Assembly: GCA_965231015.1 (NCBI GenBank)
Contig: OZ246408.1
Coordinates: 147,755-211,754 of the forward strand
Reading direction: 5' to 3'
Origin: an uncultured Gammaproteobacteria bacterium
GTDB taxonomy: Bacteria > Patescibacteriota > Patescibacteriia > UBA9934 > CAZDDW01
Length of the DNA stretch: 64,000 bases
Positions 5,017-48,453 of the stretch are shown here, piece after piece. Under the pieces are notes generated by a model. It saw only the letters and a program-made list of their open reading frames with translations, was not told where the DNA came from and ran no database searches. Each line of letters opens with the position of its first letter. Position 1 is the stretch's first letter. The translations under genes were made by a program, and so were the position numbers.

Positions 5017-5048
5017 GAGAATTAAGTACTCGAGAACAGATTTGGTTT

Positions 5049-6062
5049 ATGGCTTCACTTCGAGAAATTTCACCAAAGGAAGAAAAAGAAATCATGGAAT
5101 TTACAAAAAAATACGGCCTGGATGGAGCCCGGACTTTTCTTTCTTGTGAATACGGAGATGAATTCAGAGACACTGTTTTAAAGATTGATGAACGCATGGA
5201 CCGGGAAACCGCAGAATTGGTCTTTGCTCGGTATGGAGAGGTGGTGCAAGCGGCGCAAAATGTGGTTTCTGAAATAGAGGATTATCTTGGCTCGTCTGCC
5301 AAGGAGCAACTTGATCCGACCAAGTTGGAACAGAAGCTACTAGAAAAAGCCAAGGATTTTTTGGTTGATGTATCGGCTCAAGATTCTAAAAGGTTAGACG
5401 ATAAACTGAAAAGTTTTACTGCTGACGTGCAGCTTTTTGGAAATATTTTCAGAAGCTTGTTCAAAGGAAAGGAAAACCCGGATCTATCGATGGTTAAAAA
5501 TGTCGAGGTGGTCAGCCGGGAGGCGCAAGAAATCGATCAGAAGGACCAAGCAGCCATGCTCGATATTGCTGACAAGAACTGGCAAGAGATTCCGCGTATG
5601 CATGATTTTGTGGTCGGGTTGTTAAAGAAAAGCGTGGAAAATCCCAAGGAAGGTTCTGAGTTTAAGATTATGAAAAAAGATAATGACGTTCTGGCTTTTA
5701 TGCGGGTGGACAAGGGAGAAGATGGGTCAGCTCATATTGGATCCGTCAATGTGAATCCGAAATACCGCGGTTCAGCCATTGGTGAAGTCATGCTTAATCA
5801 GGCCGTGGAGCAGTTGGCAGCAGATCATGTAGTTAAACTTGAGGCTTATCCTGGTTCTTTGATTACGGTGGTTTACTGTGAAAAGTTTGGTTTTGTGGTG
5901 GATGGGGTGCATGAGATTCCGGTCGAAGGTGATGAACCGTTGTATGGATTCAACATGAAGCGAGATAATAAAGCGAATGAAAAGTATACAGCTCGAGCAG
6001 AACAGTTGGATCCTGAAAAACTGGTCAAGTTATCACAGAAACCAAACGAGGCCAAAAGTTAG
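5049..6062 (+). CDS. hypothetical protein with C-terminal GNAT N-acetyltransferase domain
   Basis: C-terminal YRGSAIGEVMLNQAV, a GNAT motif A-like pattern (R/Q-x-x-G-x-G/A). Confidence 0.55.
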   Translation: MASLREISPKEEKEIMEFTKKYGLDGARTFLSCEYGDEFRDTVLKIDERMDRETAELVFARYGEVVQAAQNVVSEIEDYLGSSAKEQLDPTKLEQKLLEKAKDFLVDVSAQDSKRLDDKLKSFTADVQLFGNIFRSLFKGKENPDLSMVKNVEVVSREAQEIDQKDQAAMLDIADKNWQEIPRMHDFVVGLLKKSVENPKEGSEFKIMKKDNDVLAFMRVDKGEDGSAHIGSVNVNPKYRGSAIGEVMLNQAVEQLAADHVVKLEAYPGSLITVVYCEKFGFVVDGVHEIPVEGDEPLYGFNMKRDNKANEKYTARAEQLDPEKLVKLSQKPNEAKS

Positions 6063-6149: not shown

Positions 6150-6968
6150 CTAGCCGGTTGTTTGCTGATCCGAATGATCCTGATTCTCGAGTTGTGGTTT
6201 TTGAGAAGGCAAGTTAGAACAAGTAAACAATGCTTTAATGGTTGAGCGCATGGTTTTAGCCAAGCTCGGACTTTCAATAATCACGGCAATCATATTTTCG
6301 TGATCCATAAAGGCAACATTGTTTCCAAAAACACTAATATCCCCGGTAAAGGGGTATTTTTGTTCATCAATGACTGAAGCCTGACGCAGTTCAGACTGAC
6401 TTCGGCTCATCATTTCGGATACTCGTTTACTTGAGGAGCTCATCACAGCGAAAACCGGAATTTGGGCGGCAACGCGCTGTTTTAAATACGAGCCACGTAA
6501 CCACTTGAGCAGTGTGGTTTCTTGAGCTGGCGGGCCGATTAAGCTGTAAATCGGCTGGCCGGTTTTAAGAATGGTTTGGTACACCTCTTTCATGCCGCTG
6601 ACCCCTTCAAAGACTCGAAAAGCCGGTTTTTTGGTAATTAAGTTGAAATGGCTCTTTAGGGAAGGAAGAGTAGAATCGAGCTGGGAATATAAATTTTGCA
6701 CAGATTCAAGCCGGGCTTTAGCTAAACCACGCAAACGCTCCGGATCAACTGCTCGAAAGACAGTCTTTTTGCCAGTTTCTTCAATAACCAGCCCTTTTTC
6801 TTTTAAAGACGTTAAAACATTATAGGTATTGCCGCGGCCTAAATCAGTGAGTTTTACGAGTTCTGCTGCTGGTTTTGGTCCATATTCAAGCAAAACCTCG
6901 TATATTTGAACTTCTGAGCTGTTTAGACCAAGCTCTAAAAGGATAGGGAAATGGATTTCATGAGGCAT
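6150..6968 (-). CDS. TrmB-family transcriptional regulator
   Basis: N-terminal winged HTH ELGLNSSEVQIYEVLLEYGPKPAAELVKLTDLGRGNTYNVLTSLKEKGLV, typical of TrmB (PF01978). Confidence 0.7.
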   Translation of the reverse strand: MPHEIHFPILLELGLNSSEVQIYEVLLEYGPKPAAELVKLTDLGRGNTYNVLTSLKEKGLVIEETGKKTVFRAVDPERLRGLAKARLESVQNLYSQLDSTLPSLKSHFNLITKKPAFRVFEGVSGMKEVYQTILKTGQPIYSLIGPPAQETTLLKWLRGSYLKQRVAAQIPVFAVMSSSSKRVSEMMSRSQSELRQASVIDEQKYPFTGDISVFGNNVAFMDHENMIAVIIESPSLAKTMRSTIKALFTCSNLPSQKPQLENQDHSDQQTTG

Positions 6969-7725: not shown

Positions 7726-8468
7726 AAGACAACAGTTCATTACTAGCATTTACGAATATCCGCAGTGATGACCGGCCCGGTCGGGCACGACAACCGACAG
7801 CGAGGCCATACGGAGGAGCGAGAGAGATCACCACGAATATGCGTAAGTGCATCTTACAAACCCAACTTCATGGGTTCTAACGAGTGCGCTACGCCTGGGA
7901 TCCCCAATCGGGTCGAGCCCAAGCGGAGCAGTCCTTAGAACCAGAGAGGATCAAGCGAGAGACAGAAAAACCTCTATTCGCGGGAAGTACCTTACAATTG
8001 AATACCAAATCGAAGAAGCAGGATGTAGATAAACGAACGAGAGAGATCTCTTGTCTAGGTTCTGCTTCCAGAGATCATGGATTCTAAAGTTATCCAAAAG
8101 GAAACTGTGGAGCATGACTCAATACATAACAGTGAAGTCGGGTCAGGGATTAATTACCAATCGTGATCTTATTATATAGATCGGCCTAGCGATCCGACTT
8201 CAATACTTTTTATGAATACAATTCTATTATCAACTTACATTCCTTTCATGATGGTCGTGGGAACGGTCAGTGTGGTTGGAGCGTGAGTCTTCCATAGCTC
8301 GCAAGGGAGAGAGCTTGCGAGTCTTGGAAGCCTCTGAATCAGATCCGTTATGACGGATCTGATTCAGGGAGAACGCTGCGAGGAAATGATTCTTCGCAGT
8401 GGATTAAAACGGTGCCCGTATGGGCGTTGGTGGCGTAATGCTACAACGGCCTTGAGGGGCTGCCGCAA

Positions 8469-8492
8469 AGCGTAGGGGCGAACGGCTGTTCG
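8469..8492. repeat. near-perfect 24-bp palindrome gtaggggcgaacggctgttcgccc (second copy of the 3063-3086 element)
   Basis: It differs by one base from the copy inside ORF 2904..3761. It sits about 10 bp upstream of the SD of the first GC-rich ORF. Confidence 0.8.
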
Positions 8493-8503
8493 CCCTGGAG
8501 GAG

Positions 8504-9040
8504 ATGACGATGACGACGACCACGACGAAGACAACGAAGACGACGAAGACGACGACGACGGCGCTGCCGCCGATTTCTCGACCGGCGGAGCGGCTGGAGG
8601 CCCTGCGGGGTCGTCTGATCTCGACACCCCGTGGTCCGTCCACGGGGATCGACCTCGGCCATGGCCGTCAGGTCCTGACGGAGGTCGTGTCCGTCCGACA
8701 AACGGACGGAGAGCTGGTCACCGGCCGTGATGCCCGTCACGGCCGGACCGTGCCGCTCGCGCGGCACATCGAATTCCTCCGTCGCAAGATCGCGGCGGAG
8801 AAGAAGCAGGCGGCAGCAGGCCGCCGCGGCCAGCAGGTCACTCGCCGCCGGCCGGGCAAGACCGCCCGTCGGCGGGAAGCGGCCGCCGCGGCCCGTCGCG
8901 AGGCAGAGGCCAAGGCAGAGGCCAAGGCCGCCGCGGCCCGTCGCGAGGCCGCGGAGCAGGCGGCCCGCGAGGCGGGCTGGAACTCGGCCGCGGAGCAGGC
9001 CGAGTGGGAGGTCCTCCTCACAGAAGAGCAGGCCGCCTAG
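8504..9040 (+). CDS. hypothetical protein, GC-rich island ORF 1
   Basis: Strong SD ggaggag before ATG. N-terminal Thr/Lys triplet repeat (MTMTTTTTKTTKTTKTT), Arg/Ala-rich coiled-coil-like C-terminus. GC ~68%. Confidence 0.5.
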   Translation: MTMTTTTTKTTKTTKTTTTALPPISRPAERLEALRGRLISTPRGPSTGIDLGHGRQVLTEVVSVRQTDGELVTGRDARHGRTVPLARHIEFLRRKIAAEKKQAAAGRRGQQVTRRRPGKTARRREAAAAARREAEAKAEAKAAAARREAAEQAAREAGWNSAAEQAEWEVLLTEEQAA

Positions 9041-9113
9041 CCCGCCCCCCTGATCCGTGCTTACGGGGCGATTGAAGCACGGCGGCCAAGGGACCGTTTC
9101 CCTCGCACTCGAA

Positions 9114-9150
9114 CCCCGAGCGGACGCGACGCACATCGCTTCGCTCGGGG
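9114..9150. repeat. conserved nested-hairpin motif copy 1 (ccccgagcgg-acgcgacgcacatcgc-...cgctcgggg)
   Basis: One of three near-identical ~37-nt elements, each lying 70-305 bp past the stop of a GC-rich ORF. Confidence 0.75.
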
Positions 9151-9172
9151 CCTCGATTGAGAATAGGAAATA

Positions 9173-9234
9173 GGTAAAAGGTAAAAGGATCTGAAAATCT
9201 GATTTTCTTACCTCTAACCCTTTACCCTTTCCCC
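9173..9234. repeat. hairpin built from ggtaaaaggtaaaagg / cctctaaccctttaccctttcccc tracts (same family as the tracts flanking the Avd-like gene)
   Basis: Direct reading. The central gaaaatc-t-gattttc is itself a palindrome. Confidence 0.6.
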
Positions 9235-9352
9235 TTCTGAATTGAGGCAACCGGGAAGTTTCTCTCGGTGACTCAAAGTGAAAACAAAACTCGGATTTAG
9301 CCACCCGGGTTTGAGAATGATCAGGTTGGCGACCTGAAAACGAGGAGAAAAG

Positions 9353-10372
9353 ATGTTCCAAATGACTATCAACGTTGCGGTCATGTTCTCGAAGTTCTTC
9401 AGCCCCGCCGACCGCGAGGCGGTGCTGGAGGCCATCCCGGCCGACGCCAAGAAGGTGCTGTTCGTGGACACGGGCGCCACGCCCGTGCTGGCGGACACGA
9501 TCCGCGTGCTCTTCGAGCGCGGGATCGAGGTGGTCGTCCGAGACCACCACCGTGGCGAGGGCAGGACGCCCGAGGCCGCGGAGGCGATCGAGAAGATCCT
9601 GGGCGACAACGCCCGGATCGTCTCGCGCGATGAGGCACCGGCGTGTGCCTCTCTCGTCGAGATCGCCGAGTTCGCCGAGGTCGGGACGGTCATCGTGGCC
9701 GATCCGGACCCGGACGGCCTGACCGCGGCCATGAAGGCGGCCGGCGTGACCTACGACGGCCTGGACCGCGACGCCGCGGTGCTCGACGGGCCGCGGTCCG
9801 AGCAGACCGCTGACCGGCTCTCGGATCTGGCGGTCCTGTTGACGAAGGGGATGGCGACCTTGCCCCCCTTCAACCCCAAGCGGCCGGAGGGGGGCGAGAA
9901 GGCGAAGAGCGAACACTTCGGAGAGTTTGTTGCCGCCACCCAGGGCGACGAGCAGGCCGTCGAGGCCTTGACCAAGAAGGTCGAGGTCTACGAGGTGCAG
10001 GTCTCGGAGGCCGAGCGCCTGGCCACCCGCGCCGAACAGATCCTGCCCGGCGTCTGGCTGGTCGACTGCCGCACCGGCGGCAGGTTCGACCTGGCCACGC
10101 TGGCCAAGGAGATCGAGTCCCGCCCCGGCTGCATCTGCACGGTGCAGATCAAGGGTATGGGTCCGATCGCAGCGGCCTGCGGGGGGATCCAGTACTCCTT
10201 GGCGGTGGTGAAGAGCCATCAGGCCGAGCTGGATCTCCGGAGCCTGGTCCCGGACGGCGCCGAGTCGAGCCCGGCAGCCGGACTCATCTCGAACACCTCC
10301 TTCCTCCTGCATGTGAGCCAGGAGAGGTGGATCCAGGAGATCGAGCCGGCGCTGCGCGCCCGGCTCGGCTAG
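9353..10372 (+). CDS. hypothetical protein, GC-rich island ORF 2
   Basis: SD aggagaaaag before ATG. 339 aa, GC ~67%. Contains DHH, DPDPD and EHFGEF segments. No confident family. Confidence 0.5.
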   Translation: MFQMTINVAVMFSKFFSPADREAVLEAIPADAKKVLFVDTGATPVLADTIRVLFERGIEVVVRDHHRGEGRTPEAAEAIEKILGDNARIVSRDEAPACASLVEIAEFAEVGTVIVADPDPDGLTAAMKAAGVTYDGLDRDAAVLDGPRSEQTADRLSDLAVLLTKGMATLPPFNPKRPEGGEKAKSEHFGEFVAATQGDEQAVEALTKKVEVYEVQVSEAERLATRAEQILPGVWLVDCRTGGRFDLATLAKEIESRPGCICTVQIKGMGPIAAACGGIQYSLAVVKSHQAELDLRSLVPDGAESSPAAGLISNTSFLLHVSQERWIQEIEPALRARLG

Positions 10373-10673
10373 TCCGGTTCACCTTTTCACGCGCAAGGGG
10401 TCGCGGGGAAAAGGGAAAGAAGAATGCTGCCGGTGCTGTGAAGCCGAAAGGTGGAGCTAGGCAGTAAAACCCCCCCAATCCTACAGATAGAGAGGATCTT
10501 CTATGATTGTAGGAAAACGCCACCGGTTAAGGCGTGATAATACAAATACCGGCTAATGGCCTTCGCCAAGGCTACACCGACGTATCGTGAACTTGTGGCG
10601 ACAAGTTATACGACAGTTGGTCTCTGCCAGGACCGGCCCGCAAGAGCTATATCTTGCATGCACTCGAGACATT

Positions 10674-10710
10674 CCCCGAGCGGACGCGACGCACATCGCA
10701 CCGTTCGGGG
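10674..10710. repeat. conserved nested-hairpin motif copy 2
   Basis: ccccgagcggacgcgacgcacatcgcaccgttcgggg, 302 bp after the ORF 2 stop. Confidence 0.75.
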
Positions 10711-11541
10711 ACTCGACCGAAGTCCGGAAATTTTCCGAACTTCAGTTGAGGAGAGTTAAACCAACACGCAGAGCAAACGGGCTCTGGTTAGGCCTCTTTT
10801 GGTCGCGGTTCTGTGGTGGTTCCGCGCCCCGGAGGTCTAACCGGAACCCCTTTGCCAGGGGTTGTTTATGTTTTGCTTCTAAAGTCCGTGAAATATTTCA
10901 TAGCCTTTGGAAGCGCCGTGAGGGAAATTGTTCCTTCGCGGTGTGGGGCAAGTGCTGATGCCCATTCATTCCAATTCAGCACAACTCTCATCGCCCGAAT
11001 ATCCTCTATAAGTGATAGTGTGCCTGTCATGAAATGGGGAGAATAGGGGTGATGAGATTGGAGAGCCATGAGAAAAATCATGGCCGGATGGTTGCGCAGC
11101 TCGAGCGGCATTCTTGTCGCGGGCTGTCTGCCATACGGACCGGTCCTGTGGGCGACATTGCTCACCTGTTTGGACCCCGCGTGCCGGCACCACGAGCCGG
11201 CAGCGCGGATCGTCACCCGCAAGTAGGTGATGATATCCGTAAGTCGCGATGCCCGGTGCGTTATCCGGGGAGGTCCTTTTCAGGGCCGGTGGCCGACGAG
11301 CCAAAGCGGGGCACCGCATGAAAAGCAGGGGGCGAGTCGGTTGCACACCGACCGCTCCCTTTCCACATCAGCGCGGAGACTCTAGCTCTCTTGCTGGCCG
11401 CCTTGTTTCCTAAGAGGCGTAACAGCCGCCGCTCTGATGTGGCCGCGTGAACATGCGTTCGCGCGGAAAACAGCCCCCGCCTATATCCGGAACGGGTCTG
11501 GATGAAATGGCAAGGGCAAACCGCATGAAAGGAGAAACAAC

Positions 11542-13773
11542 ATGCGGTGTTACACATGGTCCGGGGGCGAGCTCCGAGAGGGGCTCGCTCTGACCCAGGA
11601 CGATCGGCTCGGGCCGGTTGTGTTCCTGGGCGAGGCCGGGCGCGGCCGACGCTACGAAAAGGTAGCGCTCGGTCGGCGCGCTCCGGCCGAGGTGATCAAC
11701 GGGCGCGTGCTCGACGCGCACCCGGCCAAGATCACCCTGCCACCCCGGGACGGGAAGCCCGAGAAGAGCTTCTACGTCCTGGAGAAGCCGCGCCAGCACG
11801 GCGGTGACGCCGTGCTCGTGCGGGTGTACACGTACACGTCGTACATCCGCGGCGGGCGGGGATGTTGGCGGAGGATCGCCGGTGAGCCCATGACCCTGAT
11901 CTCCGGCTACGGCGCCTTCGGCGCTGCCGGCCGGGTCGGGAGCTGGGACGACGGGCTGATCGTCCTCCGCCACGGCGACGTGTTGCGCGTGTCCCCTTCG
12001 CGGGGACAGCACAGCTACGCGCTGTGGCTCGAGGCCGGCCGGCCGGTCACGGCCACCTGGCAGGACTACGAGAACCTCCAGGCGGTCGAGAAGGCCCAGC
12101 AGGTGCTCGAGCAGGCGGCGGAGACGCCCGAGGATCTCGATGTGATCTTCGGCCAGATGCGGACGTTCACGTTCGCGGGTGGCCAGATCACGGCGGGGCT
12201 AAAGGTGACGAAGGGCGCCACCGGCCCGGTCATCGCGTTCGGCGAGTCCGGACGCGGGCGTTCGCTCGTCGAGGTGCCCCTGGTCGGCCTCGACGTCACC
12301 AAGCAGAGCGACAACTACGGTCGCGAGAGCGAAGTGGTCGAGACGGCCAGCGTGGTCAAGCTCGACGAGAAGGCGGCGCCGGCGCGGTACAGCTGGGAGC
12401 AGCCCAAGGTCAATACGATCTACGGGCTCACCCAGACGGGCAAGTCGGAGGACGCCTTCCTCGTCCGCGTGTCGACCGCCGGCCCCTACACCAAGGGGAC
12501 CACCGGCACCGTCGACCCGTGGAAGGGCTCGCCCGTGGTCATCACCTCGGGCAGCGGTGCCCACGGTGACGCCGGCCGCGTCGGCGGGTGGGACGACGTC
12601 CTGCTCGTCGTGCGGGAGGGTGACGTGCTCTTCGTCCGCTCCGAAGGGGGCTACAAGAGCGCGGGTCCGTGGGCGCTGTACGTCGAGGGCGGCGAGCTCA
12701 AGGTCGAGTTCTGGCAGGAGTGGAAGCTCCGCGACGCCAAGAACGACCCCGAGTTCTACGTCGCCCAGCGCACCGCGCCGATGGGCCACACCCCCTCGGA
12801 GTGGGTCGGCCAGGTCGTGACGGTCTGCTACCTCTCGCAGGGGCAGTCCGGCTGTGGCCCGACCAAGACCTACCTCGAGGACCGCGCCACGGGCGAGCTC
12901 GTCCGGATCGGGCAGGAGTCGGTCGTCCTCAACCTCGGTTGGGACGGCAAGGACTACCACGAGTCCACCATCGGTGGTTCGTGGGTCAAGCTCGAGAAGG
13001 ACAAGCAGGTCCGGAAGCTCGACGGTGAGGAGGCGGAGAAGCGCAAGCAGATCCGCACCGAGGCCGAGGAGTTGAAGGACAAGGCCATCCTGGCCACGAA
13101 GCAGAGCCACTTCGAGCTGGCCGAGGCCACCTTGCGCCGCCAGGTGCAGGAGATCGCGCAGGAGTCAGGGTTCGACACCATGTCCACCGAGGGCTGGTAC
13201 GACTCCCTCACCTCCTGGGTCGAGAAGGCCAAGGCCGTGGTCGAGAAATGGCAGGCGACCGAGGCCGAGCTCAAGACGCTCGAGGAGCGCAAGAGCTCGG
13301 GTGAGGTGCTCGTGGACTTCGGCGGCCACTTCCGCGTGATGGGTGCCACCGGCAACGCCCAGTACTGGGTGATCATGCCGGACGGCTCCGAGCGCGACCC
13401 CGACGAGGTGGAGTACCGAAAGCGGTATACCTCGGAGGGGAGCAAAAAGTGGCGGCTGGTCGGTCCCGGGGAGCTGGCGATTTCGTGGTTCAAGGCCTAC
13501 ACGGCCGCGGACCACGAGTTTGTCGTCGACAAGCTCCCCGAGGGTGGTTGCACCGCGGAACAGCTCGTCACGGTTGAGCGCCTCGAGCGCGAGATCGACG
13601 AGCGATTCCGTGGCAGTGTCGGTTGCTCCGGGCAGTCTAGCCCGGACATCGGCCGTGGCTGGGATCTACAGCCAGCCCCCACCCCCACCGCCCCCGTGGT
13701 CGAGTCTACCGGGACGTCCGACTCTTCGGAGCCGGATCTCTCGAGTCTGCTCGGCAAGTGGGGCCGCCGCTAA
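11542..13773 (+). CDS. hypothetical protein with internal duplicated domain, GC-rich island ORF 3
   Basis: SD aaaggag before ATG. 743 aa. Two homologous segments (GYGAFGAAGRVGSWDDGLIVLRHGDVLRV and GSGAHGDAGRVGGWDDVLLVVREGDVLFV). Coiled-coil-like central region. Confidence 0.55.
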   Translation: MRCYTWSGGELREGLALTQDDRLGPVVFLGEAGRGRRYEKVALGRRAPAEVINGRVLDAHPAKITLPPRDGKPEKSFYVLEKPRQHGGDAVLVRVYTYTSYIRGGRGCWRRIAGEPMTLISGYGAFGAAGRVGSWDDGLIVLRHGDVLRVSPSRGQHSYALWLEAGRPVTATWQDYENLQAVEKAQQVLEQAAETPEDLDVIFGQMRTFTFAGGQITAGLKVTKGATGPVIAFGESGRGRSLVEVPLVGLDVTKQSDNYGRESEVVETASVVKLDEKAAPARYSWEQPKVNTIYGLTQTGKSEDAFLVRVSTAGPYTKGTTGTVDPWKGSPVVITSGSGAHGDAGRVGGWDDVLLVVREGDVLFVRSEGGYKSAGPWALYVEGGELKVEFWQEWKLRDAKNDPEFYVAQRTAPMGHTPSEWVGQVVTVCYLSQGQSGCGPTKTYLEDRATGELVRIGQESVVLNLGWDGKDYHESTIGGSWVKLEKDKQVRKLDGEEAEKRKQIRTEAEELKDKAILATKQSHFELAEATLRRQVQEIAQESGFDTMSTEGWYDSLTSWVEKAKAVVEKWQATEAELKTLEERKSSGEVLVDFGGHFRVMGATGNAQYWVIMPDGSERDPDEVEYRKRYTSEGSKKWRLVGPGELAISWFKAYTAADHEFVVDKLPEGGCTAEQLVTVERLEREIDERFRGSVGCSGQSSPDIGRGWDLQPAPTPTAPVVESTGTSDSSEPDLSSLLGKWGRR

Positions 13774-13943
13774 CCGAATCCCGTTCGGGCCCATGACGGC
13801 TCGGACGGGAACTATTCTTTCGGCCGAAAACTAAGAAGAGTAATGCCGTAAACTATGCTCTTCTGCGGACTATTCGTCCGTCCGCGCAAGCGGTAACAGA
13901 ATCGGCACTCCCCGGGCCGCCGCAAGGCCCGGTGCACATACAT

Positions 13944-13981
13944 CCCCGAGCGGTTGCGATTGCACATCGCGCCGCTCGGGG
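13944..13981. repeat. conserved nested-hairpin motif copy 3
   Basis: ccccgagcggttgcgattgcacatcgcgccgctcgggg, 170 bp after the ORF 3 stop. The loop shows coupled ac-to-tt and ac-to-at substitutions relative to copies 1 and 2. Confidence 0.75.
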
Positions 13982-14031
13982 CCTTAACTAAGATTGGGAA
14001 GTGATTCACAATCTTTAATAGGAGGTGAGAC

Positions 14032-40035: not shown

Positions 40036-40770
40036 ATGCGAGGTGAAATTGGGGGAAAATCCACAAGACATATCGGTTGGACCGTGTTAGCGGTGGTGCT
40101 TTTGATAATTTTAGCTCTTTTTGCCCTTCGGGTAATTATTATTTACGACAAGATTAGTAGAGGTGATTACCATGATTTAGCTATTGATTTTAGTGGATAT
40201 GTGAGCACAGGGCAGGGTTTGGTAGAAAGTAGTGATGACGAGGTGTATGATGTGGCGACAGAAGATGACCCGAGTTTTGGTCCTGATGGTGCGCCCTTAA
40301 CCATTGTGCAGTTTGCTGACTTTGATTGTCCGTATTGTGCAGATACCGCCTACACTGTTCGCCGCTTGCAAGGTCGGTATCCGGATCAAATTAAGTTTAT
40401 CTTTCGCGATTTTCCGATTACAGAAAATCATCCCGATGCTCAGTTAGCCGCCGAGGCAGCTGAGTGTGCCAACGAACAAGGAAAGTTTTGGGAGTTCCAT
40501 GATAAATTGTATCAGAACCAGTCAGATCAAAGCCGTGAGGTGTTAAAAAGATTCGCTGTTGAACTTAACATGGATTACAATGAATTTGTTGGTTGTTTAA
40601 ATAGTGGCCGTTATCGAAGTGAGGTTCAGGAAGATTACGCTGATGGAGTTATGGCCGGAGTTTATGGTACACCAACGTTCTTTTTTAACGGTCATCGAGT
40701 TCAGGGAGCAATTCCTGACGACGTTTTTTCACTCATCGTCGATGCTTTTTTAACGGGTACTGCCGAGTAG
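40036..40770 (+). CDS. DsbA-family thiol:disulfide oxidoreductase (membrane-anchored)
   Basis: TM anchor then the thioredoxin fold, with the CPYC active site in QFADFDCPYCA. Start set at ATG 40036; the track start 39883 is an upstream extension. Confidence 0.75.
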   Translation: MRGEIGGKSTRHIGWTVLAVVLLIILALFALRVIIIYDKISRGDYHDLAIDFSGYVSTGQGLVESSDDEVYDVATEDDPSFGPDGAPLTIVQFADFDCPYCADTAYTVRRLQGRYPDQIKFIFRDFPITENHPDAQLAAEAAECANEQGKFWEFHDKLYQNQSDQSREVLKRFAVELNMDYNEFVGCLNSGRYRSEVQEDYADGVMAGVYGTPTFFFNGHRVQGAIPDDVFSLIVDAFLTGTAE

Positions 40771-40771
40771 T

Positions 40772-42283
40772 ATGAAAAGAATGAAAAAAATAGGATCAAT
40801 TTTTGTAGCGTTGTATGCGTTTGCTTTTATTTTTGCTTTGCCTGCGACTGTTTTAGCAGCCGAGAATTGTGTTTGTTGGTGTGGGTTAGAAGGAGCCGGA
40901 GCCGTGGTAGCTGAAGGACCGACTACAATAGAAGGCTGTCGAGCCGGTTGCGATACAGCTAATATGGAATTTCTGACTTGTGCTGAAGAAGGCGATTATG
41001 ATCCGACCAATAATCTAATCTGCTGGTCAGAAACAGAATGTGCTACTGCTGAAGGTATTTGGGGAGACGATATTCCAAAAGATTGTACGGACAACACTCG
41101 TTATTGTTACAACCAAGCCGAGCCGGTTAAGCTCGGTGTGGCAGTCGGTGGAATCAGTACCGTTAATGATATCGGAGAGTACGTCAACGCCTTTTATAAA
41201 TGGACTTTGTCAGCCGGAGTAATTGTGGCCACAGTTATAATCATGGTTGGTGGCGTGCAGTACATGGTGGGTAAAGGTTCAGGAAATGTCCAAAAGGCTA
41301 AGGATCGAATTCGTCATGCGGTAATTGGATTTGTTTTGTTGCTCGGAGCGTACATTATTTTGGCCACGGTTAATCCACAATTAGTTAGTTTAGAAATTCC
41401 AACCTTCCCGAAAGTTAAAACCGTTCATTATCTTGGTGACGAAGACAACTGCGATAAATTAATCGGTCATGGCTATAAAGTTGAATTGGAAAATGGAACC
41501 GAAGTGAGTACAACCGACGCGACCATTATGGCTCTCTTGCGATCTGGTCAAACTCTGGGTGCACTCGGGAAGTCCAGTTTGAGTTGCGGGACAGAAGCCA
41601 CAGTGACAGCTGGTCCGGGGGACTCTGAAGTTGAAGAAGATAAAACCTGTTTCTTCACCTATTGTCCAACCGGTGAAGGTTGTATTCCTCCGTCAGCTGG
41701 AGAACCACCAGAGTGTATTGGGTGTACTGATATCGTCGGTTTTCAAGCAGGAAAGCCACAGCCAAGCGAAAGTACTTGCAGTATGATTACCTATCCCAAC
41801 TCCGGCAATACTAAACGTTACTGTGTATATTCTCAAACCGGACTCTTGTCACCTTTGCAGGCTGACGACATTAAAGCTCATGGTGGTTGTGGTGAGTTGA
41901 CAGTTGATTGTAGTAGCATTTCTTCCTGCCGAGATTATGATGAAGCCACTGTTAGTATCACGGCAACTAAAGTCGTTGAGTGCGTTTCAGGGGCTGGTAT
42001 TGCCGCTTTTAATCCATCAATTTTTTCCAACCTCTGTAATAGTGATCCCTGTAACGTTGCCCCGGACGGTCAAAGTTGTGGTCCGAAATTTACGTACCTG
42101 AATGATGTTTCTGAAGCCTTTCAATTAGGACCACTACCAGCCAGTTTTTATCCGGGGTTACCGAATGTCCAATGGGATTGTGTAAATACTAATTACAAAG
42201 AAACTGGTTGTTTGGATAAAGATAATAAGGACATCACTTGTTGGGATGTTGAGGGAACTACTGGAGCTTGTTTGAGGTTTTAA
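40772..42283 (+). CDS. Cys-rich secreted protein with central pilin-like pair of TM helices
   Basis: Signal peptide, about 35 Cys residues, and an internal segment WTLSAGVIVATVIIMVGGVQYMVGKG...HAVIGFVLLLGAYIILATV that resembles the VirB2/TrbC two-helix topology. Confidence 0.45.
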   Translation: MKRMKKIGSIFVALYAFAFIFALPATVLAAENCVCWCGLEGAGAVVAEGPTTIEGCRAGCDTANMEFLTCAEEGDYDPTNNLICWSETECATAEGIWGDDIPKDCTDNTRYCYNQAEPVKLGVAVGGISTVNDIGEYVNAFYKWTLSAGVIVATVIIMVGGVQYMVGKGSGNVQKAKDRIRHAVIGFVLLLGAYIILATVNPQLVSLEIPTFPKVKTVHYLGDEDNCDKLIGHGYKVELENGTEVSTTDATIMALLRSGQTLGALGKSSLSCGTEATVTAGPGDSEVEEDKTCFFTYCPTGEGCIPPSAGEPPECIGCTDIVGFQAGKPQPSESTCSMITYPNSGNTKRYCVYSQTGLLSPLQADDIKAHGGCGELTVDCSSISSCRDYDEATVSITATKVVECVSGAGIAAFNPSIFSNLCNSDPCNVAPDGQSCGPKFTYLNDVSEAFQLGPLPASFYPGLPNVQWDCVNTNYKETGCLDKDNKDITCWDVEGTTGACLRF

Positions 42284-42450
42284 CAATTGAAACAATCGGT
42301 TCAGAATGGGCCGGTTTTCCCCGCCAACGGTTCTACGTGGCGGAGTCCCGCCACGATTTGCGATGGCGGGATTTGTTTTGTTTACCCTTGTCTCTTGTCA
42401 GATAAAAAAATATGTGTTATCATCTCGAGCACTTGTAATAAAACCAAATT

Positions 42451-45312
42451 ATGAAAGATGCTATCAAAATTAGAGGCGCTCGAGTTCATAACCTTAAGAA
42501 CATCAACGTTGATATTCCGAAGAATAAATTAGTGGTTGTGACCGGACTCTCTGGTTCTGGTAAATCGTCTTTAGCCTTTGATACTGTCTATGCTGAAGGA
42601 CAGCGACGCTACATGGAGTCGCTTAGTTCTTATGCTAGGCAGTTTTTAGAAATGCAAGATAAACCAGATGTCGATGAAATTATTGGTTTGTCACCGACTA
42701 TTGCTATTGATCAAAAATCTTCTTCACACAACCCTCGCTCTACAGTAGGAACTGTCACTGAGATTTATGATTACCTGCGAGTGTTGTTTGCCAGAGCCGG
42801 TCGGCCACATTGTCCAGAGTGTAACGAGCCTGTATGCGAACAAACTCGAGATAAGATTGCTGCCGAATTAATCACCATGGTTTCAGAAAGCGAAGTTGGT
42901 TTATTTGCACCAGTGGTTGATTCGCAAAAAGGTGAACACAAACAAGTTTTACTCGCTGCGGAAAAGGCTGGTTTCAAAGAAATTCGTTATGATGGTTTAC
43001 AAATGGATTTGGATGAGTCTATTCGTATGCGTAAGGATAAAAACAAGGCTCACTCGATCGATATTTTGATTCACACGTTTATTAAAGACGAGGAAATTTC
43101 CCGGGAGCGCATGAACGATATTTTGAAAAAAGCCCTCGACTATGGCAACGGTCTGATTTTGGCAGTGCATGAATCAGATGGCGAAGAAATTATTTTTTCT
43201 GAATCGTTTGCGTGTCCTAATTGTCACATTAATCTTCCACGTCCTGAACCACGAATGTTTAGTTTCAACTCGCCGCTAGGTGCTTGTCCTGAATGTACTG
43301 GTCTGGGAGTGAAGTTGGTGTTAGAGCCAGATTTGGTAATTCCCAACAAGCGTCTGACTTTTGCTGAAGGAGCCGTGAAGCCTTGGACTCGGATTGCTGG
43401 AAACCAAACTAGTTATTTGCGAATGCTTGAACTAGTGGCCAAGAAACACAAGTTTTCTGTCAATCAATCAATTAGTAAAATTTCTAAAACTAAAATAGAT
43501 CTAGCTCTTTACGGAACTGGTGATGATATCTATAAGTTTGACGGAGCTGAAGTAACGTACCCGGGAATTATTCCGCAGCTAGAAGAAAAGTATAAATCAA
43601 CTGATTCTGATTATGTACGTAGCGAATTAGAGACTTACATGCGGACCATGGTTTGTCCTGATTGTAAAGGTAAACGTTTAAGGAAGGAAGTTTTACATGT
43701 ATTAATTGGAAACAAGTCGATTGCTGACGTGGTCAACATGTCGATTGAAGACATGTCTGGTTTCTTTGATGATATTTCTAGGAAAGAATCTAAAGGCAAA
43801 AAAGCAAAAGATAAAAAAGTTGCCGCCGACATGTCAGAGGCCGAAACCAAGGTAATCAATCGGGTAAAAAAGGAAGTAACTGAACGACTGCATAATTTGC
43901 TTGATGTGGGATTAGGTTATCTAACTCTAGACCGGTCAGCCATGACTCTGTCTGGTGGTGAAGCTCAGCGTGTTAGACTTTCAACTCAATTAAGTTCGTC
44001 ACTTTCTGGAGTAATCTATATTTTAGATGAGCCATCTATTGGTCTGCATCCCAGAGATAATGACAAACTGATCAAAACCATTGAAACTTTACGCGATCAA
44101 AACAACAGTGTGATTGTTGTCGAACATGATGAGGCCATGATGGCGGCAGCTGATCATGTGATTGATGTTGGTCCAGGGGCTGGTGAGTATGGCGGAGAGA
44201 TTATTGCCGAGGGAACTGCAGCAGCTTTGAAGAAAAACAAAGAGTCATTAACGGGACAGTACTTAAGTGGAAAGAAAAAGATAGAAACTCCCAAGAAGTT
44301 TCGAAAAGGATCTGGCAAGAAATTGACTATCGAAGGAGCTAAAGCCAACAACTTACAGGATATTAACGTTGAAATCCCGCTTGGTAAATTTGTTTGTGTC
44401 ACCGGAGTGTCTGGATCGGGAAAGTCAACTTTGATCTTAGATATTTTGGGCCGAGCTTTGTCTAAACATTTCTACCGAGCGAAGGCTTATCCGGCCGACC
44501 ATGAAGATATTAAGGGTATTAATAATATCGATAAAGTTGTGGCTGTTGATCAGTCGCCAATCGGACGCACACCTCGCTCTAATCCAGCAACTTACACAGG
44601 AGTGTTTACGGCTATTCGTGATTTGTACGCAGCTCAACCGGAAGCCAAGATGCGTGGTTTTGACGCTGGAAAATTCAGTTTTAATGTTAAAGGTGGTGGT
44701 CGATGTGAAGGTTGTGGTGGTGATGGAGTAAAAAGAATTGAAATGCAGTTTATGGGTGATGTGTACGTTGAATGTTCTGAGTGTCACGGTAAACGGTATA
44801 ATCACGAGGCCCTCGAGATATATTACAAGAGTAAAAATATTGCTGACGTGCTTGATATGACGGTGGAGGAAGCTCGCCGGTTCTTTGCCAGTGAACAATT
44901 GATTTTTGATAAGTTGAACGTGTTGCACGAAGTTGGACTCGGTTACATCAAGCTTGGGCAATCAGCCACCACACTTTCTGGTGGTGAGGCACAACGTGTG
45001 AAGCTTGCCACTGAACTTGGACGACGGGCTACGGGAAGCACTTTGTATATTTTGGATGAGCCAACAACCGGACTTCACTTTGAGGATATCAAACGTTTAC
45101 TCGAGGTACTGCATCAACTGGTCGATAAAGGAAATACCGTTTTGATTATTGAACACAACCTGGACGTGATTAAACAAGCGGACTGGTTGATTGATATGGG
45201 GCCGGAAGGTGGAAACAAAGGCGGTCTTATTATTGCCGAGGGAACACCAAAAGAGCTCTCGAAAAATGGCAAAGTCAGCTATACGGCCAAGTATTTGAAA
45301 GAGGTGCTTTAG
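42451..45312 (+). CDS. uvrA: excinuclease ABC subunit A
   Basis: Two ABC ATPase modules ([12 protein letters not shown] and [11 protein letters not shown] Walker A) and Zn-finger Cys clusters. 953 aa. Confidence 0.95.
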
Positions 45313-45331
45313 ATTGATACATATTTTGTTA

Positions 45332-45362
45332 AACCAGCGTTTTATTAACGCTGGTTTTTTTT
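45332..45362 (+). terminator. rho-independent terminator of uvrA
   Basis: aaaccagcgttttattaacgctgg followed by tttttttt. Confidence 0.8.
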
Positions 45363-45364
45363 AC

Positions 45365-45413
45365 GCCTAAAATTAGGTCAAATCTTGACAAAGACACAAA
45401 ATGGTGCTATATT
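45365..45413 (+). promoter_or_regulatory. promoter-bearing repeat A (gcctaaaattaggtcaaatcTTGACAaag-N-TGcTATATT), left boundary of the DGR cassette
   Basis: A near-identical ~40-bp copy lies at 48405-48445, immediately after the RT stop. Confidence 0.75.
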
Positions 45414-45558
45414 TTGACCTTGATCATTCAAATTTCAAGGTTAAAATTTATATGAGATAAGTATTTTGTCTGGCTCGTTTGAGCTATGTAGAATACTTGT
45501 CTCATGTTAGAGACCGGTCGTTTATCCGAACGAGTCGGATGGTTGGCCAAAAAAGGAG

Positions 45559-46470
45559 ATGATGATGACGACGGAAACGTTGATCACGTCACGGGATCCC
45601 AAGGGCAGACAGTGCTTCAGTGTGCTCGAGGCCGTCTATGACAAGGCGGAGCTCAACCCCGAGGAAGCACAGCACATCAACGAACAGGGCTATGAACTCA
45701 AGCGCGAGTTTCAGAAACTGATCGCCCGTTTGCGTGTCCGTCAGGATTACGCCAACGAGCAGGTGATCTCGAGCTACACCTACCCGAACGAGTACGCGGG
45801 CCCGCAGCCTATCGCCGAGCAGGTGGACATTCTGGCCGAGTTGTTCGGCCTGTCGCTCGGAGCAACGGTTGAGTACATTGAGAAGGTGCTACCCTCGCTC
45901 GAGCTTCCCAAGGGAGCCGAGGGGTGGTTCGCCATCCCGAGTGTCGGCGCTCTCGCTGCCCGTCACTTCCCCAAGGTCACCGATCCGGCCGAGCAGTACT
46001 GCCGCGCGGTCGAGCTGGTGCTCAAGAAGATCAGTCACTCGCGGAAGTTCTACAACTACCGCCAGGGGCAGATCAATCCGAACCAGCTGCGCCAGTATGC
46101 TAGCAGTATGGCCATGATGGAGCAGACCGTCAAGAACCAGCCAGGCGACATCATGATCATCCCGGCCCAGTTCGGTCTGCGTCACCGAGGATGCAGTGTC
46201 CGTCGAGCCCGAGCTATTTTCACCAAGAACGAATTCGGCCTCGGAGCGCTCGCTGTTGGTTCAATGCTCCTCACTCATCCCAAGCGCCTTGTCCGTTGGG
46301 AACAGCTCCACGTGGACTGCACGGGTGATGAATTTGCTCCGGTTGCTGGTGGCCAGTTCGTGCACGCGCCGTTCTTCGACTGGCTCGGCGGCGGAGTCGG
46401 GTTCTACTCCGGCCGCCTCGACAACGCGCGCGTGTACTATGGTTCGGCCTCCGGGTTTCTCCCGCAGTAG
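45559..46470 (+). CDS. DGR target (variable) protein; cytoplasmic-type N-terminus, C-terminal variable region
   Basis: SD aaggag. 303 aa. GC-rich relative to its surroundings. The last ~43 codons form the VR, which matches the TR at all positions except those where the TR carries an adenine. Confidence 0.8.
   Translation: MMMTTETLITSRDPKGRQCFSVLEAVYDKAELNPEEAQHINEQGYELKREFQKLIARLRVRQDYANEQVISSYTYPNEYAGPQPIAEQVDILAELFGLSLGATVEYIEKVLPSLELPKGAEGWFAIPSVGALAARHFPKVTDPAEQYCRAVELVLKKISHSRKFYNYRQGQINPNQLRQYASSMAMMEQTVKNQPGDIMIIPAQFGLRHRGCSVRRARAIFTKNEFGLGALAVGSMLLTHPKRLVRWEQLHVDCTGDEFAPVAGGQFVHAPFFDWLGGGVGFYSGRLDNARVYYGSASGFLPQ
46338..46468 (+). repeat. DGR variable repeat (VR)
   Basis: 131 bp aligned to the TR at 46849-46979 without gaps. 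There are 23 mismatches, and every one sits at a TR adenine. Confidence 0.85.
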
Positions 46471-46528: not shown

Positions 46529-46584
46529 CCCCGCCCGCGGCGGGGCGAACCTGTCGGCTATCCACAATACGCGTGGGTAGCCGA
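46529..46584 (+). promoter_or_regulatory. two GC-rich hairpins downstream of the VR (gccccgcc-cgcg-gcggggc; cggctatccac...gtgggtagccg); candidate target-gene terminator and/or DGR homing-associated stem-loop
   Basis: Inverted repeats read directly from the sequence, 60-115 bp past the VR. Confidence 0.45.
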
Positions 46585-46603
46585 CTGTTAATTTTGCTAT
46601 AAT
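46575..46603 (+). promoter_or_regulatory. extended -10 promoter (tgcTATAAT) upstream of the TR
   Basis: ccgactgttaattttgcTATAATg. Weak -35. Confidence 0.45.
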
Positions 46604-46848: not shown

Positions 46849-46979
46849 TCCGGATGCTGGTGGCCAGTTCGTGAACGCACCGAACTTCAACTGGAACGAC
46901 GGCAAAGTCAAGTTCAACACCGACAACCTCGACAACGCGAACGTGAACTATGGTTCGACCTCCGGGTTTCTCCCGAAGT
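46849..46979 (+). repeat. DGR template repeat (TR)
   Basis: Adenine-rich. The AAC codons in TR correspond to the variable codons in VR. The track ORF 46805..47041 is the TR read in the VR frame, not a gene. Confidence 0.85.
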
Positions 46980-46995
46980 CACTCCTCAATAACAA

Positions 46996-47022
46996 AAGAC
47001 GTCCTGTAACGGACGCCTTTTG
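46996..47022. terminator. bidirectional hairpin terminator between TR and avd
   Basis: aaaagacgtcctgtaacggacgccttttg. Confidence 0.6.
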
Positions 47023-47027
47023 TATTA

Positions 47028-47378
47028 TTATTCAGATTTAAGTGAGCGTATCCATCCTCCAAGCATGCGTCCGATTTCATCTACCTGTTGTTGCAAGGGA
47101 GTATATTTGTTGTTGTCGATAATTTTGATGTCCTTGGCCAGGCGAATTAAAAATCTAAGTAGGTTAAGTCGAACACTAACTTTTTCTAATGTCGGTAGTT
47201 TATTGTGTTTATACAGCTCGCTGGCTTGCAGAATACCTTCAATATTATCCAGGTTAGCATTTTCAATTCTTTGCCATAGAGTATGTTTATCCTGTTTTGG
47301 TATACTGGGGCGGAGAATATAAATGTTTCGATACAATTCGTAAGATTTTTTGAAGATGGGAATGTCAAACTCGTCCAT
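47028..47378 (-). CDS. avd: DGR accessory variability determinant (Avd)
   Basis: About 116 aa from the internal Met. C-terminal VDEIGRMLGGWIRSL matches the Avd hallmark (compare Bordetella phage Avd ..EVGRILGSWIARV). Basic four-helix-bundle pattern. Inverted relative to TR and RT. Confidence 0.7.
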   Translation of the reverse strand: MDEFDIPIFKKSYELYRNIYILRPSIPKQDKHTLWQRIENANLDNIEGILQASELYKHNKLPTLEKVSVRLNLLRFLIRLAKDIKIIDNNKYTPLQQQVDEIGRMLGGWIRSLKSE

Positions 47379-47387
47379 ATAATAAGT

Positions 47388-48405
47388 GTGAAGATTGATA
47401 AGAATATTTTTGATTCGATTATTGATCCGGAGTCTCTTTTTCAGGCTTGGCAGAAGTTTCGGAATGGTAAAAGCAAACGTAAGGACGTAACTCAATTTGA
47501 GTGGAATTTGGAGAGTAATATTTTCAAGCTACATCGTGATTTAGTCAATGGAATTTATCGACACGGGTCATACACTGATTTTTACATCACTGATCCAAAA
47601 TTGCGCCATATTCACAAGGCTACGGTGCGGGACAGGATTGTACATCACGCCGTGTATCAAGTTGTAAATACAATCTTTGAGCGATCATTTATTTTCGACA
47701 GTTACTCCTGTCGGATTGGCAAGGGTACACATGCGGCAGTGAATCGACTCGAGAAGTTCGTTCGTAAGGTGAGCAAAAATTACACTGGTCCATGTTGGGC
47801 GCTTCAGTTTGATGTGAAAAAATTTTTTGATTCCGTTGATCATGACATTTTACTTAGTATTCTCAAACAAAAAATCTCCTGTCCAAAGACAAACCGTCTT
47901 TTGGCGGAGATCGTGGGCAGTTACTCGAGTTCAAATTCCGTTGGGGGGGGGGACGCTACTTGGAACCATTCGCGCGAAAGGTCTCCCGATTGGGAATTTA
48001 ACCTCGCAGTTGTTCGCGAACGTGTATATGGATGCATTTGATCATTTTATTAAAGAGGGGTTAAGAGCGCAGTGTTATCTACGCTATACTGATGATGCTT
48101 TGATTATTCACGAAGATCCGAAATATTTGAGTCTGCTCGTGCCATTTATTCAGCACTGGCTTTGGCAGAACAGGTGTCTTGTTTTGCATCCTTATAAAAC
48201 ATCTATCCGAAAATATTCGCAAGGGATTGATTTTCTTGGCTATGTTAATCTGCCACATTATCGAGTGCTTAGGACAAAAACCAAGAAGCGCATGTTTAAC
48301 CGCATTGATGAAACAAATCTGTCTTCATATTTGGGGGTTTTGTCTCATGCTGATACTCACAAAATGCAAGATAACTTGTTAAATATAGTTTGGTTTGAGC
48401 TTTAG
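47388..48405 (+). CDS. DGR reverse transcriptase, interrupted by a +1 frameshift in a G10 tract (47944-47953)
   Basis: RT motifs: TVRDRIVHHAVYQVV, FDVKKFFDSVDH, KGLPIGNLTSQLFANVYMD (the DGR-specific I/LGxxxSQ signature), YLRYTDD. The two halves are the track ORFs 47283..48041 and 47827..48405. The start is uncertain (ATG 47283 or GTG 47388). Confidence 0.8.
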
Positions 48406-48453
48406 CCTAAAATTAGGTCAAATCTTGACAAAATGAGCGAATGGTGCTAAGGT
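48405..48453 (+). promoter_or_regulatory. promoter-bearing repeat B (gcctaaaattaggtcaaatcTTGACAaaa...), right boundary of the DGR cassette
   Basis: Identical to repeat A over ~30 bp, then diverges. The -10 is degenerate (TAAGGT). Begins at the RT stop codon. Confidence 0.7.

Follow-up and report, generated by a model that had tools for sequence, protein, structure and literature searches.

Among natural systems of protein diversification, diversity-generating retroelements (DGRs) are the most extreme, and little is known of how cells keep them in check. A closely related described system is the DGR of Bordetella phage BPP-1 (bRT-Avd, PDB 8ub7), whose reverse transcriptase (RT) carries the GxPIGxLTSQ and YxDD motifs and is accompanied by the accessory protein bAvd; as in DGRs generally, its template region (TR) and variable region (VR) differ only at adenines of the TR, and the VR lies at the C-terminus of the target gene. 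A different kind of locus, the simple-sequence contingency locus, is found in Neisseria, Haemophilus, Campylobacter, and Helicobacter, where the reading frame depends on the length of an uninterrupted intragenic poly-G/C tract, individual alleles are found in one of several frames, and tract length is polymorphic against an otherwise identical background (PMC3786947, PMC6321876, PMC2823697). In phasevarions based on mod methyltransferases (PMC3230613), as well as in switchable mutators, a stochastic repeat switch acts on an enzyme that itself creates heterogeneity, which amounts to second-order bet-hedging. Finally, in homopolymer slippage rescue and programmed transcriptional slippage (reviewed in PMC5009743; IS3, PMC6211511), a gene is out of frame at a repeat yet its downstream part is conserved.

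Here we report the analysis of a 64-kb stretch of DNA (64,000 nucleotides, hereafter the window, to which all coordinates refer unless another contig is named) that contains a complete DGR with an RT gene split at a run of ten guanines, with features of two known kinds of locus, a DGR and a simple-sequence contingency locus. The truncated RT product (P0009) is on record on a 1,002,985-bp contig, which indicates a genome of about 1 Mb of the Candidate Phyla Radiation (CPR, Patescibacteria) type. The cassette consists of the following features:

45365..45409, + strand: left copy of a 45-nt direct repeat that bounds the DGR cassette
45559..46470, + strand: DGR target gene, 303 aa, with the VR at its C-terminus; no Pfam or PHROG match
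46338..46468, + strand: variable region (VR), 131 nt, 82% identical to the TR
46553..46585, + strand: terminator-like hairpin after the target gene
46849..46979, + strand: template region (TR), with 34 adenines
47000..47015, + strand: short hairpin with a T-rich tail, between the TR and the 3' end of avd
47028..47378, - strand: bAvd accessory gene, 116 aa (Pfam bAvd PF22296, E 1.9e-22), divergent from the RT gene
47388..47942, + strand: N-terminal part of the RT, with a GTG start and the motifs IHKATVRDR, SYSCR, and FDVKKFFDSVDH, ending at the tract
47943..47952, + strand: G10 simple-sequence repeat that codes for GGG in a loop specific to the clade; with a length of 3n+1 it places the gene out of frame
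47953..48405, + strand: C-terminal part of the RT in the +1 frame, open to its own stop at 48403-48405
48405..48449, + strand: right copy of the 45-nt direct repeat, its first 28 nt equal to the left copy

The TR and VR differ at 23 positions, all 23 of them adenines of the TR (A to G, 11; A to T, 7; A to C, 5), with no other mismatch. The starts of bAvd and RT are 9 nt apart, and we take this divergent avd/RT layout to be the type that a survey of CPR DGRs calls B3. That architecture is reported in 90% of CPR DGRs (PMC5758913).

The window RT belongs to the same family as the bRT of BPP-1, its best match in the PDB (phmmer E 5.8e-41), and shares with that DGR both conserved motifs, the bAvd partner, the adenine-only TR/VR pair, and the C-terminal position of the VR; it differs in the divergent orientation of avd and in a 16-residue loop at the tract, which the BPP-1 enzyme lacks. 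As in the contingency loci, an intragenic G tract sets the frame, with several-frame alleles and length polymorphism among relatives. Unlike them, the host is a CPR bacterium whose genome measures about 1 Mb, the gene that would be switched is itself a mutagenesis enzyme, the tract lies mid-gene in a tolerated loop and not near the 5' end, and it is G(n) or (GA)n depending on the lineage. The likeness to phasevarions and switchable mutators lies in the enzyme that a repeat would switch, whereas the effect of a DGR is the targeted diversification of one protein by reverse transcription, not an epigenetic change or a genome-wide mutation rate. Conserved coding sequence downstream of a frame break, and hairpins beside the (GA)n repeats of some relatives, recall programmed slippage, from which the locus departs in an offset that is not fixed, a variable length, a tract of G or GA and not of A/T, and no stimulatory structure at the window tract. 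In the literature searched, which included a large DGR survey and the global DGR ecology paper, no mention was found of a repeat, a frameshift, or phase variation in the RT gene of a DGR; the 2017 Nature Microbiology paper on CPR DGRs lay outside that search, and with this proviso a frame-switching repeat in a DGR RT appears not to have been described before.

The G10 run occupies positions 47943-47952, preceded by T and followed by A. The preliminary description had quoted the tract string, gttGGGGGGGGGGacg, correctly and placed it one base too far to the right, at 47944-47953. The tract is the longest homopolymer of the 64-kb window and its only G/C run of at least 8 (the next longest is 7), where base composition predicts about 0.06 G/C runs of such length per 64 kb. 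From the GTG start at 47388, the upstream RT frame crosses the tract as ..SVGGGDATWNH..VYGCI and stops at 48039-48041. In the +1 frame, the sequence after the tract reads TLLGTIRAKGLPIGNLTSQ..YTDD.., includes GLPIGNLTSQ (47980-48009) and YTDD (48085-48096), and continues to the stop at 48403-48405. The preliminary description was right to read this gene as a DGR RT that a +1 frameshift within G10 has broken. One G fewer (G9) or two more (G12) would give a single RT open reading frame, and the claim that deleting one G yields a continuous enzyme is likewise borne out: the RT with one G removed has its motifs and matches Pfam RVT_1 nearly end to end (profile positions 8-203 of 205, E 2.6e-23). 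The frameshift is the only lesion in the gene, the +1 frame being open for 150 codons with every motif intact.

Several other readings of the break were considered and rejected. Removal of the A that follows the tract would also restore the frame (VGGGAL.., where the paralogue described below reads G10 followed by CG..); this is disfavoured, tract slippage being mechanistically far likelier, and the closest relative, L171, also has G10 with a different next codon. Synthesis of the RT as two separate polypeptides does not agree with downstream start codons that are not conserved or with the existence of in-frame alleles. A structural polypurine role (triplex or G-quadruplex) fits neither the (GT)n found at the equivalent 5' site of other loci nor a lone G10, which is unable to form a quadruplex. 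A search of Rfam gave no RNA family near the tract.

The tract encodes part of a loop that is predicted to be dispensable. When aligned with bRT (PDB 8ub7), the window RT has its 16-residue insertion at the tract, just before the motif that reads GIPIGSLTSQ, and in an AlphaFold model of the window RT (mean pLDDT 70) residues 181-202 are unstructured, with pLDDT below 50; relatives tolerate either GGG or GGGG in this loop. In all seven relatives for which DNA was available (eight loci with the window), the VGGG loop is encoded by an uninterrupted G run, of 9 nt in L164, L165/L166, and L167, 10 nt in L002 and L171, 11 nt in L163, and 12 nt in L083. Elsewhere in the RT genes of this clade GGG accounts for 34% of glycine codons (0 of 11 in L165), and if the loci are independent, seven of them with three GGG codons apiece would arise by chance with a probability of about 1e-10. 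The RTs are only 55-72% identical, a distance at which synonymous positions would be expected to be randomized, and such exclusive use of GGG shows that it is the homopolymer itself, beyond the three glycines, that is maintained in the clade at the DNA level. The same loop in other lineages is encoded by (GA)6-25 in place of the G run.

We extended the comparison to 160 CPR DGR RT loci fetched from metagenomes and genomes. A loop repeat of G10-12 or (GA)6-25 is present in 11 of the loci examined (10 of the 160, and L002), and about thirty CPR loci have a repeat of G8-12, (GA)7-11, or (GT)8-12 at the 5' end of the RT gene. The RT motif was located in 153 CPR loci, and of the 51 long repeats in these loci, 43 are inside the span of the RT gene, which makes up 21% of the bases (binomial P = 1e-21). 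As a control, a query with the N-terminal half alone was used to collect 80 DGR RT loci from viral contigs; each of the 80 RTs is read in a single frame, long repeats amount to 1 in 260 kb, and neither a loop repeat nor a frameshift was found in any of the 80. Given this control, the repeats and frameshifts are a property of these cellular CPR clades and not of DGR RTs or of metagenome assembly generally.

Broken RTs of this type are numerous. A protein collection was queried with the 188 N-terminal residues of the window RT, and 101 sequences were retrieved out of the 120 top matches listed; 91 of the 101 are distinct RT fragments of 178-260 aa, a count that gives no trustworthy ratio of broken to intact genes, since the word prefilter may favour short subjects and the intact proteins P0002-P0007 are missing from this list of matches to the N-terminal half. 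The fragments stop within a few to about 50 residues past ..GGG (55 fragments) or ..RERERE (32), derive from Uhrbacteria, Magasanikbacteria, Berkelbacteria, Andersenbacteria, and Parcubacteria, and come from NCBI, JGI, ENA, and Logan data, many of them on contigs of 20-630 kb. Judged by the reading of the GLPIGNLTSQ region, 25 out-of-frame tails are in frame A, the state of the window, and 18 in frame B, the remaining tails being too short for a call. Intact members are known both for the GGG type (P0001-P0008 and others) and for the RERE type (P0020, P0024, P0029, P0039, P0057, P0204, P0209). Fragments ending in GGG or RERE were found in more distant branches too when representatives at 50% identity were searched, a set in which the clade collapses into few representatives and which is too coarse for an ON/OFF census.

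Repeat length also differs in an otherwise identical background. The alignment of L168, from an NCBI metagenome-assembled genome, with L169, from an ENA assembly of Hainich groundwater, covers 4270 nt without a mismatch, and its one gap, of 10 nt, corresponds to (AG)14 versus (AG)9 in the RT loop; the raw data behind the two may overlap, and L170 agrees with L169 in having (AG)9. The two alleles are in different wrong frames, and in both the C-terminal half is fully open and has every motif. A similar pair is formed by the intact P0052 and the broken P0195, which are 95% identical in their core and differ at the repeat as L168 and L169 do.

A second complete DGR of identical architecture lies in the same genome (L002, 4432-6960), with a target gene of 237 aa, VR at 5018-5140, TR at 5461-5583, a divergent bAvd, and an intact RT. 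This RT is 72% identical to that of the window and has a G10 at the homologous position (6508-6517), where the tenth G starts a GCG codon and the gene remains in frame. The L002 TR is unlike the window TR except near the 3' end, and it is therefore uncertain whether the L002 RT could complement the window cassette in trans. With the window cassette OFF (3n+1) and its paralogue ON, the simplest account would be that each of the two cassettes in this genome has its state set without regard to the other.

NCBI and Logan assemblies alike contain the identical truncated RT open reading frame (P0009). An in-frame version of the window RT was absent from a collection of 5.8 billion proteins, in which the best full-length match was the 72% identical paralogue. 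An exact-pattern scan of genome contigs, allowing a variable gap, gave no other assembly of the locus, and exact-protein look-ups of the downstream 563-aa protein and of P0009 gave no further copy. A UvrA look-up gave only L001 (Logan, SRR7048221), an independent contig that matches window positions 40048-46353 at 100% identity; it breaks off within the VR, at a point 10 nt short of the next site of a TR adenine. The paralogous cassette was assembled straight through its own VR in SRR7048225. The end of L001 gives a weak hint of VR heterogeneity at the window cassette despite its OFF consensus.

Taken as a whole, these comparisons make it probable that the G10 tract, placed in a loop that the RT can do without, is a hypermutable repeat and serves as a reversible frameshift switch, and that the window copy was assembled in the OFF state. 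The preliminary description had listed a phase-variation switch as one of three readings without choosing among them; it is favoured by the evidence from relatives, as the tract is conserved, both wrong frames occur among homologues, length differs in an identical background, and the downstream part is constrained. Phase variation as the predicted mode of control is well supported by these comparisons, from which we infer switching at the window locus, its reversibility on ecological time scales, and its control of diversification. In the proposed mechanism, slipped-strand mispairing at replication would change the length of a conserved hypermutable repeat located in a flexible loop of the DGR RT, just before GLPIGNLTSQ. 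At G9 or G12 the frame would be kept, and a full-length RT would be made and carry out mutagenic retrohoming of the TR into the VR; at other lengths the RT would be truncated before the catalytic YTDD and the cassette silenced. The outcome would be a heritable, reversible, and stochastic switch for each diversification cassette. The broader proposition, that CPR DGRs are commonly governed by hypermutable G(n), (GA)n, or (GT)n repeats in the RT loop or in the RT/avd overlap and that their cassettes flip heritably between ON and OFF, seems on balance to hold.

Recoding offers an alternative view, in which the out-of-frame state would be the normal expressed one and slippage of RNA polymerase or +1 slippage of tRNA-Gly would supply a low level of full-length RT, tract length tuning the RT dose with no ON/OFF switching. 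The great number of out-of-frame copies with conserved downstream halves agrees with it, as does a run of GGG codons on which tRNA-Gly can re-pair perfectly in the +1 frame, and in four relatives (L015, L128, L089, L103) a stable hairpin abuts the (GA)n repeat on the 5' side and a UUCG hairpin follows on the 3' side, a layout resembling the hairpin-stimulated transcriptional slippage of IS elements. The hairpins flanking (GA)n in L015, L128, and L103 have z scores of -1.2 to -3.4, whereas no significant RNA structure was found at the window tract (z = +1.5) or at that of the paralogue (z = 0.03), and the 0-frame codon that follows the window tract, GAC, is neither a stop nor obviously slow. 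Slippage is less documented on G tracts than on A/T tracts. Programmed sites normally have one fixed offset, but neither offset nor tract length is fixed among the relatives (G 9-12, GA 6-25), which occupy all three frames and vary in length in an identical background. Recoding is for these reasons unlikely to account for the locus; being compatible with a DNA-level switch, it may contribute some leaky expression, through slippage at the RNA level or a +1 slip of the ribosome on GGG-G.

It is quite unlikely that the window RT is a recent pseudogene, in which one slippage event would have killed a cassette that is now decaying while the paralogous DGR continues. This reading draws on the absence of an in-frame allele of the window RT from every assembly, on the intact paralogous cassette in the same genome, and on the closest relative, L171, which has G10 together with a premature stop near the 3' end. 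Set against these are the single lesion, followed by 150 open codons with all motifs, the 23 adenine-only TR/VR differences with no other mismatch, and a tract that is a conserved feature of the clade and no chance site of mutation. Moreover, the ratio of C-terminal to N-terminal identity is 0.95-1.16 for the window compared with its relatives and 0.85-1.26 for the OFF alleles as a group (window, L171, L168), as against 0.85-1.07 for intact pairs. Conservation of the C-terminal half being no lower than that of the N-terminal half, the broken RT genes do not appear to be decaying, although some broken copies may be, given the additional stop of L171.

A sequencing or assembly error that hides a true G9 and an intact gene is highly improbable, even though long G homopolymers are error-prone on several sequencing platforms, because the same truncated open reading frame comes from NCBI and Logan assemblies, the paralogous G10 of equal length was assembled in frame, no other gene of the window is split, and such breaks recur in dozens of independent assemblies from different groups and pipelines, dinucleotide repeats included, while 0 of the 80 metagenomic viral DGR RTs are broken.

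If cassettes are switched in this way, CPR bacteria would have a simple, heritable, and reversible means of control: a small subpopulation would diversify a protein of the surface or one that binds ligands, and the other cells would retain a variant that works. At any time, a large fraction of the cassettes in nature would be OFF, and surveys that require an intact RT would miss them and under-count CPR DGRs; in the overlap arrangement, a single repeat would set the RT and avd frames together. Roux et al. sort DGRs into active and inactive ones (PMC8144416), and an RT frame switch could help to explain apparently inactive DGRs of metagenomes.

The surroundings of the window cassette were also examined. 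The 45-nt direct repeat brackets the cassette exactly and has no further copies in the window or in L002. At its left copy there is a predicted strong sigma-70-like promoter (TTGACA, 17 nt, TATATT; 45385-45413) that matches 11 of 12 consensus positions. The repeat may be a duplicated promoter, a trace left when the cassette was inserted, or a substrate by which the cassette could be deleted. The neighbouring genes are intact (UvrA, RuvA, FemAB, a DsbA-like protein, tRNAs, RNase P), no split genes were seen elsewhere in the 64-kb window, and RuvA/FemAB and other adjacent pairs of open reading frames, considered as possible splits, proved to be separate genes. At 8000-14000 of the window there is an island of 62-67% G+C in a background of 44% G+C. 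Its open reading frames at 9353-10372 (339 aa) and 11542-13773 (743 aa) have no PHROG match, the 743-aa one has no Pfam match, and the island has no rRNA or other Rfam match; it may be foreign DNA or a mis-join.

Among the CPR DGRs, repeats were observed at further sites. In about 30 loci, G8-12, (GA)n, or (GT)n occurs where the starts of the RT gene (+) and bAvd (-) overlap head to head (for example, L152 2953-3000, L065 663-713, L073, L124, L132, L155), and the RT is out of frame in L051, L054, L059, L062, L082, and L143, among others. In six poly-G overlap loci with the RT leader ATG in frame, avd has an in-frame ATG beyond the tract, which it reads as Pro, and in the overlap loci with RT out of frame, avd is without an in-frame start. 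In these overlaps, the frames of RT and avd seem to depend on one and the same repeat. The (GA)n loop repeats of L015 (3560-3650), L128 (1636-1700), L089 (3570-3635), and L103 (3545-3600) belong to a composite unit that is translated in frame throughout: on the 5' side a 9-11 bp hairpin ending in ..AAATCGA abuts the repeat, with compensatory changes between loci, and on the 3' side there is a UUCG-type hairpin. L015 has (GA)25 and L128 (GA)10 with shared flanks. The composite might be a module that stimulates slippage, or else a small element that was inserted.

CPR DGR modules have recurrent repeats at other positions as well: after YxDD, close to the C-terminus of the RT, and some 925 nt upstream of GLPIGNLTSQ. 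Examples are P0208 and P0218 (..NEYTLRGGG..), as well as P0034, P0194, and P0328 (..GGG at the C-terminus), and further repeat sites are also present in L110, L133, L134, L097, L099, and L100. The proteins P0162 and P0163 are identical up to about residue 305 and differ in their last 10-15 residues (..KWGQPPFMLG versus ..KWGHGNGVSHHLC), a divergence that suggests another slippage site near the 3' end of the gene.
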